Shown here: positions 243 through 8,972 of the stretch, piece after piece
How the letters are laid out: each line of letters opens with the position of its first letter
Numbering within the stretch: position 1 is the first letter of the stretch
Origin: a virus
Taxonomy: Duplodnaviria > Heunggongvirae > Uroviricota > Caudoviricetes
DNA length: 9,541 nucleotides
Virus record (IMG/VR): IMGVR_UViG_2706794687_000013
Reading direction: 5' to 3' (one strand)
Notes under the pieces: generated by a model
Told to the model about the DNA's origin: nothing
Databases searched by the model: none
Seen by the model: only the letters and a program-made list of their open reading frames with translations
Translations under genes and position numbers: made by a program

Positions 243-1325
243 TCATTTTCTCTGGCTGATCTTTACCGGATAACCATCCCGAAGATCAATTAAGTGCTCC
301 GGTTCAGAAGCAAACCATGCATAAGATCCCCACGCCAATTCTGGTATTGCCTTTTTAAAAGGCAGAGCACTTCTGTCCATAAATGCCGTAAGGAATGCAA
401 GATTTTTCTCGCTGAACCCAGCGTCAATAGCCAAATGAGTGAGAGTAACTTTTCGTTCCCTGTTTATAGGCCCATCTGTCGCAACTACTTCAGTGAAAAC
501 TACAAGCATGTCCGAACCCGTTCGGTCCTCTCCCAAATCAATCAAAATAATATCTGGAAGTGCTTTTGAGGCATCAATATTCAGCCCCAATGCTTTTGCC
601 AATACATCATCCTGAGCAACAACTTTATTCCCGGATTCAGACAACCAGAGCACAGTTGGATTCTTAAGAAAATTAGGAGCAAAAACTTCGATGACGGCCT
701 TAGCTATTGTACTTGACGGGCCCGGAGCTAAAGTTCTCTTCTCTCCATTTGGGAAAGTGACGACTACGGCATCAGCAGCAATCACTGCCCCTGATTTCAA
801 TAAACGCAACCTAGCAAGAGCGGCTTTGTTCAAATGATTTTCTTGCCAGGAACTTATTGCACTCAGCAGCGAATCTCCTTCAAGCCCGGCATCAAAGAGT
901 GCTGCAAAAGAGCGATTCAAACTGTAACGAGGACGAGAGGATGTGGTGGGTATACCTTTACGCTCAACAATTGCATTGCAAGGTATTAGGCCATTTTTTA
1001 TAGTTTCATCACGTATTGGCTCACGCGTATTTTCCGCATACCATGCATCAGCAGGCCTTATCTTTTGTTTAGAGAAAGTCATCTTTACCCAGCTTTCTCT
1101 GGACGCATCATCAGTAAGAGCAGCCTGCGAATCTCCCATACTTACAACCTGGCTGGGCCTTATCCATCGCCCCAGCCCCTCAACCGCACCAGCATAAAAC
1201 ATGACAAAAATTGTTTTTGCAGCTATTTCCCGAATTAAATATCCACGATTCTCAGTCCCTTCAGGGAAAATTAATTGTAATCTTTCCCGGATAACATTCA
1301 ATGGGGGAACAACAGGCAGATTCAT
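243..1325 (-). CDS. putative Type II restriction endonuclease, partner of the adjacent methyltransferase (possibly BsuBI/PstI-like; family recalled from memory, unverified)
   Basis: 360-aa ORF. Its ATG (1325-1323) overlaps the MTase stop (ATGA at 1325-1322), implying translational coupling. GGAG lies 10 nt upstream. GC is low (about 40%), like the MTase. No MTase or specificity-subunit motifs; no nuclease motif could be confirmed by eye. Confidence 0.55.
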   Translation of the reverse strand: MNLPVVPPLNVIRERLQLIFPEGTENRGYLIREIAAKTIFVMFYAGAVEGLGRWIRPSQVVSMGDSQAALTDDASRESWVKMTFSKQKIRPADAWYAENTREPIRDETIKNGLIPCNAIVERKGIPTTSSRPRYSLNRSFAALFDAGLEGDSLLSAISSWQENHLNKAALARLRLLKSGAVIAADAVVVTFPNGEKRTLAPGPSSTIAKAVIEVFAPNFLKNPTVLWLSESGNKVVAQDDVLAKALGLNIDASKALPDIILIDLGEDRTGSDMLVVFTEVVATDGPINRERKVTLTHLAIDAGFSEKNLAFLTAFMDRSALPFKKAIPELAWGSYAWFASEPEHLIDLRDGYPVKISQRK

Positions 1326-3094
1326 GCAATCATCACTCCATAGAAACCAGCGATAGTTCTCTCAATAATCCGTCTGTGGACGCCAGCATCAATTAACGAT
1401 TGAATCTCCATCACCTGCTCCAGAGAAGGCAACGGGATTGAATTCAATTCATAGGCCGAAACAGCAACACTTCCGCTTATACACCTGAACGCCCGATCGA
1501 CAACATGCGAATTAAGTAGCATATCAATAACATCAGGGCGAACCGCAGAGAACAATCCGTTTGAATATACAATATTAATATGGTTTTCAACTACTACGCC
1601 ACCAGTTTCATCTATAAATCCCTGAGGTAAAATTGCCGCTAAAATCCTTCTGTCCTGTTCCTTCGATGTTGTCCGCTGAACAAGCACACATTCAGATTTT
1701 GTCACAAGGAAACCCTGTTGTGGGGTTATATCGATATAGGGAACATGATTTTTTCTGTCTGCACTAAAACGAAAACCAGCTGAAGTTATTGATTCCGCCC
1801 AGACTAATGGGTAGCTATTTTTTCCTTTCGTCGTACGCAACTGCGACTTAAATCGATTCCAGACTAACTGACCTGTAGAGACTGAGTATCCCAGATCAGC
1901 TAAACGCGTAGACATCTGTTTTAATACATTAAGAAAACAGGCATCATCTTTAACGCGTGGCAAAAGCCACGTTGCTCCACCTTTTTCTATATCAACATTA
2001 CCTATTTTCTCAATTTTTGCTTTGTTCAACCCCTTAGGGACAAGTGAGGATACCTGGGCCCGAACTTTATGTTCTCCCGCCTTGAATGCTGTCAACATTG
2101 TTTCCTGGAGAACATCGTCAAAGACCCCATCCCTGTCAGTGACGAAATCAAGGGCATACGGAGTAGTTTTTTCGGTCAAAAGNNNNNNNNNNNNNNNNNN
2201 NNNNNNNNNNNNNNNNNNNNNNNNNNNNNNNNNNNNNNNNNNNNNNNNNNNNNNNNNNNNNNNNNNNNNNNNNNNNNNNNNNNNNNNNNNNNNNNNNNNN
2301 NNNNNNNNNNNNNNNNNNNNNNNNNNNNNNNNNNNNNNNNNNNNNNNNNNNNNNNNNNNNNNNNNNNNNNNNNNNNNNNNNNNNNNNNNNNNNNNNNNNN
2401 NNNNNNNNNNNNNNNNNNNNNNNNNNNNNNNNNNNNNNNNNNNNNNNNNNNNNNNNNNNNNNAATGGATCGATCTCTATCCCCTTTAAACGACGACTGAT
2501 TCTCCTCAACATCCATTCAGGGGAAGACCCCTTGTCTTTTTTTAACATTCGAATGGCTACTGGTGCCAAAAATGCACCGCCACCACACGCAGGATCAATA
2601 ACCGATGCATGAGAAAAATCAACACCAGACTTTTCAGCCAGGTCCAAGAGACGCGCTACCAAAGGTGGGGGGGTATAGTAAGCCCCCAATTCCGAACGGT
2701 AAGCGGATGGCAGCATTACCGTATAAATTGACCCAATCAGATATCCAGCGTCCTCCGCCGGAAATTGAGCAATAAGCTCACCTGTTCGTTCAGCGAGCTC
2801 GCGTGCATCACATGGAATGTCTTCTATGTAAACAGTGTGCGGTACTGCCCTCATTTTAATGCTGCTTTTTTGCTTTTTTGCAAGGGTATCCCAATATGCA
2901 GCTACGATGCTGAAGCAGTATGAGCGGGCATGCATCAACCTTGACTGCCCGGTTTTGTAATTGCCCGCATAACCTTTGGCCATGGCTTTACAAGTTTGAT
3001 ATCTTTCCAGATTAGAAAACTCATTATCTGTAAAAAAATCAAAATGTTGCACATTCATAATGTAAAATCCTAATGTATCAAACATGCGGGCCAT
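1322..3094 (-). CDS. N6-adenine DNA methyltransferase (N6_Mtase/HsdM-like catalytic domain with a TaqI-like C-terminal target-recognition region); Type II R-M methylase
   Basis: 590-aa ORF. 'GAYYTPPPLVARLLDL' and 'DPACGGGAFL' match the AdoMet-binding motifs (X and I) of gamma-class amino-MTases. The C-terminal part ('LADLGYSVSTGQLVWNRFKSQLR...') resembles TaqI-like recognition domains. Motif IV (NPPY/F) presumably lies in the masked stretch 2183-2462; frame continuity across the mask is assumed from length. Alternative start ATG 3058 (AGGA 9 nt upstream). Confidence 0.8.
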   Translation of the reverse strand: MARMFDTLGFYIMNVQHFDFFTDNEFSNLERYQTCKAMAKGYAGNYKTGQSRLMHARSYCFSIVAAYWDTLAKKQKSSIKMRAVPHTVYIEDIPCDARELAERTGELIAQFPAEDAGYLIGSIYTVMLPSAYRSELGAYYTPPPLVARLLDLAEKSGVDFSHASVIDPACGGGAFLAPVAIRMLKKDKGSSPEWMLRRISRRLKGIEIDPXXXXXXXXXXXXXXXXXXXXXXXXXXXXXXXXXXXXXXXXXXXXXXXXXXXXXXXXXXXXXXXXXXXXXXXXXXXXXXXXXXXXXXXXXXXXXXLLTEKTTPYALDFVTDRDGVFDDVLQETMLTAFKAGEHKVRAQVSSLVPKGLNKAKIEKIGNVDIEKGGATWLLPRVKDDACFLNVLKQMSTRLADLGYSVSTGQLVWNRFKSQLRTTKGKNSYPLVWAESITSAGFRFSADRKNHVPYIDITPQQGFLVTKSECVLVQRTTSKEQDRRILAAILPQGFIDETGGVVVENHINIVYSNGLFSAVRPDVIDMLLNSHVVDRAFRCISGSVAVSAYELNSIPLPSLEQVMEIQSLIDAGVHRRIIERTIAGFYGVMIA

Positions 3095-5420: not shown

Positions 5421-5685
5421 NNNNNNNNNNNNNNNNNNNNNNNNNNNNNNNNNNNNNNNNNNNNNNNNNNNNNNNNNNNNNNNNNNNNNNNNNNNNNNNN
5501 NNNNNNNNNNNNNNNNNNNNNNNNNNNNNNNNNNNNNNNNNNNNNNNNNNNNNNNNNNNNNNNNNNNNNNNNNNNNNNNNNNNNNNNNNNNNNNNNNNNN
5601 NNNNNNNNNNNNNNNNNNNNNNNNNNNNNNNNNNNNNNNNNNNNNNNNNNNNNNNNNNNNNNNNNNNNNNNNNNNNNNNNNNNGG

Positions 5686-6737: not shown

Positions 6738-7163
6738 TCAATGTACTGCCACAGCATTTCCTGCCGGGCCACCACGGTTCATCTGATTGAAACCGGCGAT
6801 TGCCACTGCGACAAAATCATCAGCGTCTCTCACCAGTCGTTCATGCGTCTCCACCAGTTCCCGAAAATAAGCTGAACTGTGGCTGCGCATTCGAGCCACC
6901 AGCGGAGGTGGCATTGCCCTTTCGATCGCAGGTAACAACGCCTGAATTTTTTCAACAGCGTCAGGGGTGTCTTTATCCAGCCAACGGAAAATCTTTTGGG
7001 TGTTGAGATAAAGCGTGTTGTGCTTGCTGTCGTTATGCAGAACCGGAAACGTCATTCCCAGTTCGAAATAAACCCTGGTTATTTCAGCTGCCGGAACTTT
7101 TTCACCGTCCGGATGCGCCCAGGCTTTCATCGCCATGCGGATGTGTTCATGCTTGATTTTCAT
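6738..7163 (-). CDS. ydaT: YdaT-like prophage regulatory protein (possible CII-like role in the switch)
   Basis: 141-aa ORF beginning 'MKIKHEH...'. Its ATG (7163-7161) overlaps the upstream gene's stop (ATGA). Size and position (second gene after the Cro-like gene, before the O-like and DnaC-like genes) match Rac ydaT as recalled; sequence identity not verifiable here. Confidence 0.6.
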   Translation of the reverse strand: MKIKHEHIRMAMKAWAHPDGEKVPAAEITRVYFELGMTFPVLHNDSKHNTLYLNTQKIFRWLDKDTPDAVEKIQALLPAIERAMPPPLVARMRSHSSAYFRELVETHERLVRDADDFVAVAIAGFNQMNRGGPAGNAVAVH

Positions 7164-7423
7164 GAATCAACCCCCGCCGATGGTTGTGTGTTAGCCTGAA
7201 ACTCAGCAGGCAAGCCGTCAGTTGGGTTGGGGTAGGTTTTACTGTCAATCTCATGTGGGGTCACCACCCATCCCGTTGCTTCACACCAACGTAATATTTT
7301 TTCTCCTGTAAGTTTTGCACGCCCCGTTATAACGTGGCTGACCATCCCTTGGGATGCGCCAACAATCTCAGCAAATGAACTCTGGGTTATATGAAAATGA
7401 TGCAAATATTCTCCAAGATTCAT
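7160..7423 (-). CDS. ydaS: YdaS-like Cro-type HTH DNA-binding protein (first gene of the leftward early operon)
   Basis: 87 aa from ATG 7423-7421 (the track's 7450 start is TTG and would run into the operator region). HTH-like 'ITQSSFAEIVGASQGMVSHVITGRAKLTGEKILRW'. Divergent from the repressor gene. Confidence 0.6.
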   Translation of the reverse strand: MNLGEYLHHFHITQSSFAEIVGASQGMVSHVITGRAKLTGEKILRWCEATGWVVTPHEIDSKTYPNPTDGLPAEFQANTQPSAGVDS

Positions 7424-7534
7424 AATCCGCCCTATGTGATGTGTTACCAATGCATAATTAATAGCACTGTTATTTTTAAAAGTAAATAGTGATACTATTT
7501 CAAAGTGATTAGCAATCTTATTAGAATTGGATGT
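7424..7534. promoter_or_regulatory. divergent promoter/operator region with two 15-bp palindromic operator-like sites (O1 7460-7474 AATAGCACTGTTATT; O2 7485-7499 AATAGTGATACTATT)
   Basis: 111-bp AT-rich gap between divergent starts. O2 is a perfect 6-3-6 palindrome. Candidate rightward promoter TTCAAA(7499-7504)-17-TAGAAT(7522-7527), ending 7 nt before the repressor ATG. Candidate leftward promoter overlapping O1/O2 on the minus strand. Confidence 0.5.
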
Positions 7535-8035
7535 ATGAAAAGAAAATCATTGTCAGACACCGACCTCAACGCCGCCAGAAGACTGAAAGAAATCTGGATG
7601 GCAAAGAAATCTCAGTTGGGATTGACTCAGGAACGTGCGGCGGAAATTATGGGGTTTTCAACACAAGGGGCGGTAAGTCACTACCTAAATGGTCAAACCC
7701 CACTAAACCTTGAGGCTGTTCTAAAGTTTGCTGGCTTACTGAAAGTTCCCCCTGAGTCAATCAGGCCAGACATGGTAGATTTGCTGCAAATTGCAAGGAT
7801 GTATTGTCGAGAACCACAGCAAGATAACATAGTCGCATTACCAGCAGACACAGAACAAACAGAGGATGAACTACCGTTTGCCGTAGAGCCGATGGAACGA
7901 GATTTAATCCATACGTTCAGAGCTTTTCCGAAAGAAGATCAAGAACACATGCTTCAGGAGATGAAAGATAAAAAAGAATCAATGGATCGTACGGTTGCGC
8001 GGTGGTTAGCTGCACAAAAAGGCCGTCGCGCCTAA
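7535..8035 (+). CDS. paaR: XRE-family HTH transcriptional repressor (PaaR/RacR-like prophage repressor)
   Basis: 166 aa from ATG 7535 (the track's 7505 start is GTG). Canonical HTH_XRE 'LGLTQERAAEIMGFSTQGAVSHYLNGQTPLNLEAVLKFAGLLKV'. Divergent from the Cro-like gene; followed 19 bp later by the antitoxin-toxin pair. Symbol inferred from operon architecture, not sequence identity. Confidence 0.75.
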   Translation: MKRKSLSDTDLNAARRLKEIWMAKKSQLGLTQERAAEIMGFSTQGAVSHYLNGQTPLNLEAVLKFAGLLKVPPESIRPDMVDLLQIARMYCREPQQDNIVALPADTEQTEDELPFAVEPMERDLIHTFRAFPKEDQEHMLQEMKDKKESMDRTVARWLAAQKGRRA

Positions 8036-8054
8036 ATCAGAGGAGATATGTAAA

Positions 8055-8249
8055 ATGAGTACAGTCCTTTCCCCAATGGTTTCAGAATTTGAGACAGTTG
8101 AGCAAGAAAATAGTTACAACGAATGGCTGCGGGCCAAAGTAGCAGCAAGCCTCGCGGATCCCCGCCCGGCGATTCCGCATGATGAGGTAATGGCGGAAAT
8201 GGAACAAATTATTGCCCAAATTGCTGCTGCAACTCACAGAGGTGAATAA
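8055..8249 (+). CDS. paaA: small antitoxin of a ParE-type toxin-antitoxin module (PaaA-like)
   Basis: 64 aa; AGGAG 9 nt upstream of ATG 8055. Stop TAA 8247-8249 overlaps the toxin ATG (TAATG). Acidic, low-complexity C-terminus. Size and position match the recalled PaaA2 antitoxin; symbol assigned by context. Confidence 0.65.
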   Translation: MSTVLSPMVSEFETVEQENSYNEWLRAKVAASLADPRPAIPHDEVMAEMEQIIAQIAAATHRGE

Positions 8250-8539
8250 TGTTACCCGTTTTATGGCTACCATCTGCTCGTGATGATTTGCGCCAGATCG
8301 TAGCCTACATAGCTAAAGAAAATCCCGCGGCAGCACGCAGAATGAAAATTCGAATTGAAACATCCGTTTTGCCGCTCACAGAGCATCCTTACCTGTATCC
8401 TCCAAGCGAGCGAGTTCTTGGTCTTCGTGAAATTGTAACTCATCCTAACTACATCATCCTTTACCGAGTAACAGCATCAAGCATAGAAGTAGTAAATATT
8501 GTGCATTCTCGAAGACAGTATCCAGGCAAAAACAGTTAA
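8249..8539 (+). CDS. parE: ParE/RelE-superfamily toxin (ParE-like)
   Basis: 96 aa. 'LPVLWLPSARDDLRQIVAYIAKENPAAARR...GLREIVTHPNYIILYRVTASSIEVVNIVHSRRQYP' fits the ParE/RelE pattern. Translationally coupled to the upstream antitoxin; GAGG upstream. Confidence 0.8.
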   Translation: MLPVLWLPSARDDLRQIVAYIAKENPAAARRMKIRIETSVLPLTEHPYLYPPSERVLGLREIVTHPNYIILYRVTASSIEVVNIVHSRRQYPGKNS

Positions 8540-8555
8540 TTATTCCCGCCGACAG

Positions 8556-8577
8556 AACCACCTTAGGGTGGTTTTTT
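8556..8577 (+). terminator. Rho-independent terminator after parE
   Basis: AACCACC-TTAG-GGTGGTT perfect 7-bp stem with 4-nt loop followed by TTTTTT, 17 bp after the parE stop. Confidence 0.8.
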
Positions 8578-8595
8578 CTTGCCCCAACAAAAAAC

Positions 8596-8638
8596 AATAG
8601 CGATGCTATTTACATCAAAAAAAAATAATGATGCTATT
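8596..8638. promoter_or_regulatory. second operator-like pair (O3 8596-8610 AATAGCGATGCTATT; O4 8624-8638 AATAATGATGCTATT) related to O1/O2
   Basis: O3 is a perfect 6-3-6 palindrome with the same half-site AATAG(C/T) and GAT spacer as O2. O4 shares 13/15 positions with O3. Sits between the terminator and the next rightward gene. Confidence 0.5.
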
Positions 8639-8819
8639 GTTTCAGGCGTCAACCCACCCCGCCCCACAGAATGCAGGGCAATACTTCGAGTTACCAGACA
8701 GTGGTCAGGGGTTAAGTAGCCAGCCCGAGGCGTAAGAACATGACGGCAGGGTTCAATCTTTAACTATGCAGCAGGTTTTTTGTTCCGCCACCCCGGCGTT
8801 AAGGGGAAATGAGGTCAGC

Positions 8820-8972
8820 ATGGATACTATCGATCTTGGCAACAACGAATCTCTGGTGTGCGGCGTGTTCCCTAACCAGGATGGAACGTTTACCGCCATG
8901 ACGTATACCAAAAGCAAAACGTTTAAAACCGAATCTGGCGCGCGTTGCTGGTTAGCCAGAAACACTGACTGA
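8820..8972 (+). CDS. small hypothetical prophage protein (possibly YdaF-like; unverified)
   Basis: 50 aa from ATG 8820 with GAGG 5 nt upstream. The track's longer form from ATG 8766 lacks an RBS. Confidence 0.5.
   Translation: MDTIDLGNNESLVCGVFPNQDGTFTAMTYTKSKTFKTESGARCWLARNTD

Follow-up and report, generated by a model that had tools for sequence, protein, structure and literature searches.

The immunity regions most closely comparable with the one considered here have been described in the cryptic prophage CP-933P of E. coli O157:H7 and in Qin of E. coli K-12. In CP-933P, PaaR2 and YdaS leave footprints at the right operator (OR), the left promoter PL933P next to parE2 is repressed, PaaR2 forms an octamer, and the paaR2 mRNA has been shown to be leaderless, as is likewise that of lambda cI (PMC8630535). 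In Qin, with its DicA/dicBp system, the repressor-controlled promoters lie in the dicA-dicC gap and upstream of ydfA, the head of the ydfABC-dicF-dicB operon, and repressors of the DicA type are relieved by antirepressors, e.g., Rem, rather than by RecA cleavage (PMC10448788, PMC3441716). Our subject is a stretch of 9,541 nucleotides from a virus of the Caudoviricetes (IMG/VR record IMGVR_UViG_2706794687_000013), hereinafter the window, by which the whole of that stretch is meant, and in particular four related 15-bp palindromic sites, O1 to O4, that flank on both sides an operon coding for a repressor and a PaaA-ParE toxin-antitoxin (TA) pair. What the window contains is the region for immunity and replication of a lambdoid Escherichia coli/Shigella prophage, and the sites very probably are the OR and left operators (OL) of a lambda-type bistable CI/Cro immunity switch.

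Sequence and statistics of the sites

The four sites were first proposed in a first-pass annotation made from the letters of the window, and both the coordinates and the sequences given there proved exact: O1 AATAGCACTGTTATT at 7460-7474, O2 AATAGTGATACTATT at 7485-7499, O3 AATAGCGATGCTATT at 8596-8610, and O4 AATAATGATGCTATT at 8624-8638, with no strand assigned to any of them. The claimed spacings likewise hold, with 25 bp from centre to centre between O1 and O2, 28 bp between O3 and O4, and 1137 bp between the midpoints of the two pairs. O1 and O2 do lie in a divergent promoter region, i.e., the 111-bp gap between the repressor gene on the plus strand and the cro-like gene on the minus strand, and O3 does follow directly upon the parE terminator, starting 18 bp after the intrinsic terminator at 8554-8577. 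The description of O2 and O3 as perfect palindromes stands for their 6-bp arms and fails for the asymmetric 3-bp centre: O1, O2, and O3 each have six of seven symmetric pairs and O4 has four of seven, the arms showing one mismatch in O1 and two in O4.

Might such sites be chance matches in AT-rich intergenic DNA, or generic promoter elements? The two intergenic regions combined are indeed ~57% A+T, above the window overall, and a loose pattern with up to two mismatches gave at least four matches in 5 of 200 shuffles. To avoid circularity, the outer arms AATAG/CTATT alone were scored, with at most one mismatch; by this measure the window holds exactly O1-O4 and none besides, against an expectation of 0.22 per 9 kb. 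First-order Markov simulation produced a pair within 30 bp in 1 run of 5000, and none of 20,000 runs at the composition of both intergenic regions gave four sites. Further, the position, spacing, and arms of the sites are kept across dozens of loci in which the spacers and central bases diverge. Chance can thus for all practical purposes be set aside, and the four sites are confirmed as real and non-random.

A position weight matrix (PWM) built from the four sites brings out a weaker fifth one, ATTAGCAATCTTATT (7508-7522, no strand), as its next-best match window-wide, at 11.6 bits; the matches after it reach 7.9 bits (one that merely overlaps O1) and an unrelated background of ~5 bits. It lies 23 bp from O2 and is a candidate for OR3. 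Apart from these sites, the 111-bp repressor-cro intergenic region has no visible repeated motif.

Domain architecture of the repressor and the Cro-like protein

The N-terminal ~80 residues of the 166-aa repressor (7535-8035, plus strand; Pfam HTH_3) are homologous to the N-terminal domain (NTD) of lambda CI. A phmmer search against the PDB recovers 1lmb, 3bdn, 7jvt, and others with E-values of 2.9e-9 to 1.6e-8, aligning query residues 2-81 with lambda CI residues 3-81, the basic N-terminal arm included, and acidic residues of the repressor appear to align with E34 and D38, the positive-control residues of lambda CI. The C-terminal 64 aa show 56% identity to the PaaR-type repressor of an O157:H7 prophage (locus L002). 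The motifs AFPxEDQE and ARW(L/I)AAQK.RRA of this C-terminal domain (CTD) are common to PaaR2, which was compared through the primer table of PMC8630535 (primer-encoded AFPEDEQ, ARWIAA, and QKCRRA). A PDB sequence search with the CTD returned no solved homologue, the sole match being that of the NTD to lambda CI. Pfam finds HTH_3/HTH_31 only in the repressor, and the S24 peptidase domain is absent; because there is no peptidase domain, induction by an antirepressor or spontaneous switching is expected, like that of DicA and PaaR2, rather than RecA cleavage. The protein shows how a lambda-CI-like DNA-binding domain, together with its operators, may be attached to a peptidase-less CTD of the PaaR/DicA type.

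Across the divergent promoter region stands the gene of an 87-aa Cro-like helix-turn-helix (HTH) protein (7160-7423, minus strand) in the YdaS/DicC position. Its recognition helix, SQGMVSHVITG, is similar to that of the repressor, TQGAVSHYLNG.

Predicted promoters and a proposed regulatory scheme

A consensus scan predicts the promoter for repressor maintenance (PRM) at 7499-7527 on the plus strand (TTCAAA, 17-nt spacer, TAGAAT). The scan also finds it in L001, a 98%-identical E. coli locus, and its geometry is conserved in an alignment of relatives. In sequence, O2 and the predicted −35 share a single base, the last of the former and the first of the latter, and the candidate OR3 falls between the −35 and the −10. 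Since the predicted −10 ends 7 nt ahead of the repressor ATG (7535), with no Shine-Dalgarno, the repressor mRNA is predicted to be leaderless; relative to the ATG as the predicted transcription start, the centre of O2 is at about −43. In lambda, CI at OR2 activates PRM from about −43.

The right promoter (PR) of the Cro-like gene would be placed at 7458-7486 on the minus strand, with TTTACT (reverse complement of 7481-7486), a 17-nt spacer, and TATTAA (reverse complement of 7458-7463), an assignment drawn from a reading of the sequence and from the parallel with the left promoter (PL). At the level of sequence, O1, the PR-proximal equivalent of OR1, covers its spacer and overlaps the predicted −10, and O2, the equivalent of OR2, has a 2-nt overlap with the predicted −35. 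On the other side of the operon, a PL-like promoter equivalent to dicBp and PL933P lies at 8609-8640 on the plus strand (TTTACA...TG-n-TATTGT), such that O3, the distal operator and OL2 equivalent, overlaps its −35, and O4, the proximal operator and OL1 equivalent, overlaps its −10. In L001 the scan calls this promoter, which there has a 17-nt spacer and an extended −10 TG; the same scan passes it over in the window, which has a 20-nt spacer. The terminator that separates it from the repressor-TA operon (8554-8577, plus strand), a hairpin with a U-run (dG −15.1 kcal/mol, z −2.8), is conserved in the alignment of relatives; the promoter/terminator scan missed it and folding then confirmed it. 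Also seen at this end is a minus-strand promoter-like match, TTGACG-16-CATTAT (8625-8652; 9/12), which overlaps O4, faces parE, and is found in L001 too; it may be a chance match or an operator-controlled antisense promoter.

Repressor binding, the order of occupancy, and PRM activation are inferred here from lambda, PaaR2, and DicA. Repressor dimers would recognise AATAG(Y)-N3-(R)CTATT through the lambda-CI-like HTH domain and, on O1 and O2, would block PR and with it the Cro-like gene, ydaT, and the replication genes. The dimer at O2, abutting the PRM −35, would probably activate the leaderless repressor-paaA-parE transcript. The weak OR3 inside PRM would provide negative autoregulation at high repressor levels and would likely be the preferred target of Cro. 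At O3/O4, the repressor would shut down transcription of the ydfA...dicB early-left operon from its PL-type promoter. For the Cro-like protein, binding to the same sites would be expected, with the order of preference reversed.

Conservation of the sites with the repressor NTD

The loci compared directly (L001, L003-L012, L077, and L078) code for repressors 47-99% identical to that of the window, which form three groups: 166-aa proteins with 75-99% identity, dual-HTH proteins of 240-255 aa, and a 47%-identical Salmonella protein. The dual-HTH relatives have the same NTD, followed by a second HTH of the PaaR type and then the shared CTD, and all three groups keep the recognition-helix region TQGAVSHYLN almost unchanged. 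One variant, with a 78%-identical repressor, is indexed in nearly 5000 blocks of an assembly collection. In all retrieved NTD loci, O1, O2, and an OR3-like site stand upstream of the repressor gene at the same offsets, 25 and 23-24 bp. A recognisable downstream OL pair is present in all of them except the Salmonella loci L009/L010 (those of the 47%-identical protein), which have degenerate OR sites and a single weak downstream site. The distance from OR to OL ranges from 1.1 to 3.0 kb among the retrieved loci. Across these relatives the arms are conserved and the central 3 bp and the inter-site spacers drift, as expected of the target of a dimeric HTH protein.

The O157 prophage locus L002 provides a negative control: it has ydaT, the PaaA/ParE pair, ydfA, and the repressor CTD in common with the window, and a different HTH. 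The AATAG-N5-CTATT motif is absent at its OR and OL positions, both of which carry a repeat of its own, AACTGT-N9/10-ACAGTT.

These comparisons bear on whether the sites might be operators of TA autoregulation, with the PaaA-ParE complex as their ligand in place of the HTH protein encoded upstream. A TA operon does lie between the sites, and autoregulation via the antitoxin is usual among type II TA systems. However, PaaA (8055-8249, plus strand) matches only the ParE-neutralising PaaA2 family (PF21217, 3e-23; PDB PaaA2 3zbe, 1.4e-23), and PaaA2 has no DNA-binding domain (PMC8630535). Moreover, L002 has a closely related PaaA/ParE pair and none of the sites, and the sites are kept with varied cargo: PaaA-ParE, HigBA (L009), a HipA-like gene (L011, there with a DUF3037 gene, and L051), and, in Collimonas, no TA cargo at all. 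Autoregulation by the TA pair is in view of this extremely improbable.

Among the relatives, the dual-HTH repressors at L011 3001-3735 and L012 1512-2246 (proteins P0013-P0023) unite a lambda-CI-like and a PaaR-type HTH in one chain. The L002-type repeat AACTGT-N9/10-ACAGTT was looked for in the dual-HTH loci and none was found, nor any sign of dual operator sets in cis, operators of the AATAG-N5-CTATT type being the only ones visible there; possibly the second HTH binds operators of another prophage.

Phyletic reach of the operator motif

In the reverse direction, the pattern AATAGYNNNRYTATT-N9-14-AATARYNNNRCTATT was scanned against public viral contigs and the representative genomes of 185,579 species. 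In the viral contigs, 59 of 78 loci have an NTD homologue (hmmsearch, E<1e-5), mostly adjoining the sites. In the enterobacterial-type contigs among these, the OR spacing is 25 bp in 41 of 41, and an ATTAG/ATTAA variant of OR3 stands at the +23 offset in the same 41 of 41, as it also does in Herbaspirillum L067. The representative genomes returned 64 loci, mostly AT-rich genomes or long hairpins; such matches (Clostridia, Bacteroidales, giant viruses), without an NTD homologue, were set aside. Twelve of the 64, from distant Proteobacteria, carry a strong NTD homologue (E 1e-9 to 1e-37), including loci of Marinobacter, a Legionellales metagenome-assembled genome, Collimonas, Herbaspirillum, Psychrobacter, Acidithiobacillus, Pandoraea, and Gallionellaceae. 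In most of the twelve the OR gap contains two or three sites spaced 25 bp apart, which in several cases adjoin the gene of a divergent Cro homologue, and a further cluster of sites lies 0.9-3.8 kb off in most. The NTD homologues of Collimonas, the Marinobacter-type element, and Herbaspirillum, from beta- and gammaproteobacterial prophages, are ~40% identical to that of the repressor. That of Collimonas L040 is joined to a CTD in which an S24-peptidase-like motif, GNSMDG, is recognisable by eye, and the Marinobacter-type element (L051/L049/L039/L015) has yet another CTD and HipA-like cargo.

Because the sites thus accompany NTD homologues with different CTDs and cargo, operator specificity tracks the NTD regardless of either, and the layout of OR plus OL is ancestral. 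The NTD and its AATAG-N5-CTATT set seem to have been joined to at least four CTD or induction modules, i.e., the PaaR/DicA-type, the dual-HTH, the S24-peptidase-like, and another.

None of the sequenced phage genomes in the collection carries this immunity region, the best phage NTD identities, 52-57%, being those of the CI of Stx2 phages and the "DicA" of Rac-SA53. The cI-cro gap of the Stx2 phage Lyz12581Vzw has a related site, AATAGTCTAGCTATT (L157 2442-2456), and that of the Rac-SA53 "DicA" has ATTAGCCTCACTAAT and AATAGTCAGACTATC, 25 bp apart (L158 2390-2429). A wider clade with a TAG...CTA core specificity is suggested.

It might still be held that only the Cro-like protein or another factor, such as YdaT or a host protein, binds the sites and that the 166-aa protein recognises something else. 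In support of this, the Cro-like recognition helix co-varies with the motif just as the repressor does, that of the L002 Cro being different. However, the motif follows the lambda-CI-like NTD into distant genomes, the 111-bp intergenic region shows no second repeated motif, YdaT has a distinct operator of its own at 7153-7170, and a host protein would not be expected to accompany a phage HTH domain all the way from E. coli to Collimonas. Exclusive binding by such a factor is therefore very unlikely. A sharing of the sites between the repressor and the Cro-like protein, which the first-pass annotation had allowed for, is consistent with the similarity of the two recognition helices and with their common co-variation.

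In light of the above, the reading of the sites as the OR and OL of the repressor, to which that annotation had already likened them, is well supported: they accompany the repressor NTD, are absent from the heteroimmune L002, and overlie predicted promoters. O3 and O4 overlie the PL-type promoter predicted ahead of ydfA, in keeping with the control of the downstream small-gene operon that had been proposed for them. What that annotation lacked was the third OR site, the identity of the paaR-paaA-parE module, and the derived nature of the 28-bp spacing. Several points weigh against this reading. The repressor and Cro co-vary together, so that the comparison cannot separate their roles. The candidate OR3 is a weak site, with two arm mismatches here and three in most relatives, and OL shows only two recognisable sites. 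The predicted PR was read by eye, matches the consensus at 8/12, and falls below the threshold of the scan. Cooperativity and OR-OL looping over ~1.14 kb would follow by analogy with lambda, PaaR2, and DicA. Lastly, with a spacer of 20 nt, the PL that O3/O4 overlie may be crippled.

A variable A-run between O3 and O4

The last of these points has its origin in a run of A residues between O3 and O4 (8615-8623), which is A9 in the window, A8 in S. sonnei L077, and A6 in most relatives (L001, L078). The gap that holds it measures 13 nt in the window, 12 nt in L077, and 10 nt in L001, L078, and L003-L008. As a consequence of the A9 run, O3 and O4 are 28 bp apart and the PL spacer is 20 nt, as against 25 bp and 17 nt. 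This spacing is atypical: among 36 viral contigs, an OL spacing of 25 bp is found in 31, with three of the others at 27 bp, one at 28, and one at 24, and the directly examined relatives have 25 bp too, save for 27 bp in L077 and 26 bp in the dual-HTH loci L011/L012. The 28-bp spacing is thus a derived state, and PL is probably weakened in the window because the expansion of the A-run lengthens its spacer from 17 to 20 nt.

How far has such weakening gone? It is quite possible, if somewhat short of an even chance, that OR is functional and that OL/PL is decaying here, in the sense that A9 largely silences PL and the sites no longer control the downstream operon; even then, O3/O4 may still bind the repressor and could still help looping. 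This would fit the gap lengths, with 10 nt as the state of L001, L078, L003-L008, and the 31 of 36 viral contigs, as well as the calling of PL by the scan in L001 and not in the window. Yet a promoter is not wholly inactive with a spacer of 19-20 nt, and the loss could be offset by the extended −10 TG. For a single window, an error in sequencing the homopolymer is also conceivable, though variants of 27 and 28 bp recur in independent contigs.

A bolder proposal, which we regard as rather unlikely, is that the A-run is a slippage-prone contingency tract that heritably tunes or shuts off a toxic early-left operon of the dicB/kil type and alters communication between OL and OR. Through slippage, a PL spacer of 17 nt would become one of 19 or 20 nt, and the OL dimers, phased at 25 bp, would come to stand 27 or 28 bp apart. 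If true, cryptic prophages could keep the repressor-TA module without the risk of PL derepression. Less speculative is the suggestion, from the distribution of the sites, that this immunity specificity is unusually stable, from the Enterobacteriaceae to the Burkholderiales and Marinobacter.

Gene neighbourhood

The paaA and parE genes (the latter at 8249-8539, plus strand; PF05016, 1.8e-17) lie directly downstream of the regulator in the same orientation, as cargo that shares the transcript of the repressor and occupies the place that rexAB has in lambda. Beyond O3/O4 is a ydfA-type gene (8820-8972, plus strand; DUF1391, PF07151, 1.3e-28) that heads the early-left operon. Downstream of it in L001 are ydfB, ydfC, a gene for a Rha-family regulator, dicB, an exonuclease, and an integrase; the order from ydfA to ydfB, ydfC, and dicB is found in both L001 and L078, dicB itself being beyond the window. 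The place of ydfA as first gene was read from the gene order of L003-L006 as well as L001. The leader between O4 and ydfA (8640-8820, ~170 nt) is mostly 90-95% identical in more than 4000 E. coli records of any immunity type. Folding of 176 nt of this leader gave no excess of structure (z +0.8) and the leader has no Rfam match, nor did an Rfam scan of the whole window yield any.

On the minus strand, the cro-like gene is followed by ydaT (6738-7163) and then by an O-like gene and a DnaC/IstB-like gene. The YdaS/YdaT partners are both present (PF06254), and at their junction, spanning the stop codon of the cro-like gene and the start codon of ydaT, is the YdaT operator TTGATTTTCATGAATCAA, i.e., TTGATT-N6-AATCAA (7153-7170, no strand), with zero mismatches to the published operator (PMC9986795). 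At the equivalent junction CP-933P has an OM site beside PRE933P (PMC9986795). By this analogy, the YdaT site would imply a YdaT-controlled establishment promoter of the PRE type facing the repressor gene; it is part of the same switch and not an operator of the repressor. No N/nut system was identified.

At the far end of the early-right region, also on the minus strand, are genes for a BsuBI/PstI-type restriction endonuclease (243-1325) and an N6-adenine methyltransferase (1322-3094, part N-masked). The same type of restriction-modification system stands directly after cI in Stx phage Lyz12581Vzw, whose CI NTD is 52% identical to that of the repressor. Sequence is masked by runs of N at 2183-2462 (280) and 5421-5683 (263), which affect part of the methyltransferase gene as well as of the O-like and DnaC-like genes, themselves overlapping.

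Comparison with known systems and significance

The main interest of the locus lies in its operator map, the union of a lambda-CI NTD with a PaaR-type CTD, the phylogenetic reach of the half-site, and the polymorphism of the A-tract at PL. There is now a confident and testable map, comprising OR1-3, OL1-2, PRM, PR, PL, and the YdaT/PRE site, for an immunity type common among the prophages of E. coli and Shigella. It may be of use in prophage annotation, in the prediction of superinfection immunity groups, and in understanding the control of paaA-parE and of cell-division inhibitors of the dicB type.

The closest parallel may be struck with CP-933P (PMC8630535, PMC9986795), with which the window has in common the order PL, parE-paaA-repressor, PRM/PR, ydaS, ydaT; a PaaA2-family antitoxin with ParE as cargo; a short, peptidase-less repressor with the same CTD motifs; a repressor mRNA predicted to be leaderless; clusters of operators at OR and, beside parE, at PL; and an identical YdaT operator, TTGATT-N6-AATCAA, at the ydaS/ydaT junction. 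The NTD, however, is unrelated in sequence to that of PaaR2: it does not align with the PaaR-type HTH of O157 L002, and the protein begins MKRKSL where the primer-encoded start of PaaR2 is MQKKEIRRL. The operators likewise differ, being 15-bp AATAG-N5-CTATT sites 25 bp apart as against 18-bp repeats of the GTTTAGTAA type. With operators and a DNA-binding domain both different from those of PaaR2, the window therefore has a different immunity specificity, i.e., it is a heteroimmune member of this group.

A second parallel, in mirror-image layout, is with lambda itself. The likenesses extend from the homology of the NTD to the divergent cI/cro arrangement, a repressor mRNA that is leaderless in lambda and predicted to be so here, the OR2-like site abutting the PRM −35 at about −43, and the presence, between the repressor gene and OL/PL, of a terminator and of cargo, paaA-parE here taking the place of lambda rexAB. 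In both, OR is tripartite and separated from OL on the scale of kilobases; the spacing within OR is 25/23 bp in the window, and that of lambda OR is 24/23 bp. Unlike lambda CI, the repressor has no S24 peptidase, i.e., RecA-cleavable, CTD, and so no induction by autocleavage. The operators are 15 bp instead of 17 bp with a different half-site, two OL sites are visible, and YdaT replaces CII.

Finally, like DicA of Qin, the repressor is a short, CI-like, peptidase-less protein, and the homologue of ydfA comes right after O3/O4. The differences are in the DicA operator Oc, TTGTTAGTCATAACTAACAA, which is not AATAG-N5-CTATT (PMC3441716), and in Qin having no TA cargo between the repressor and dicBp. 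Thus, with its lambda-like DNA-binding domain, its likeness to CP-933P in gene order, cargo, and CTD, and its early-left operon headed as in Qin, the locus presents no new regulatory principle; it is a new, uncharacterised immunity specificity inside a known architecture.

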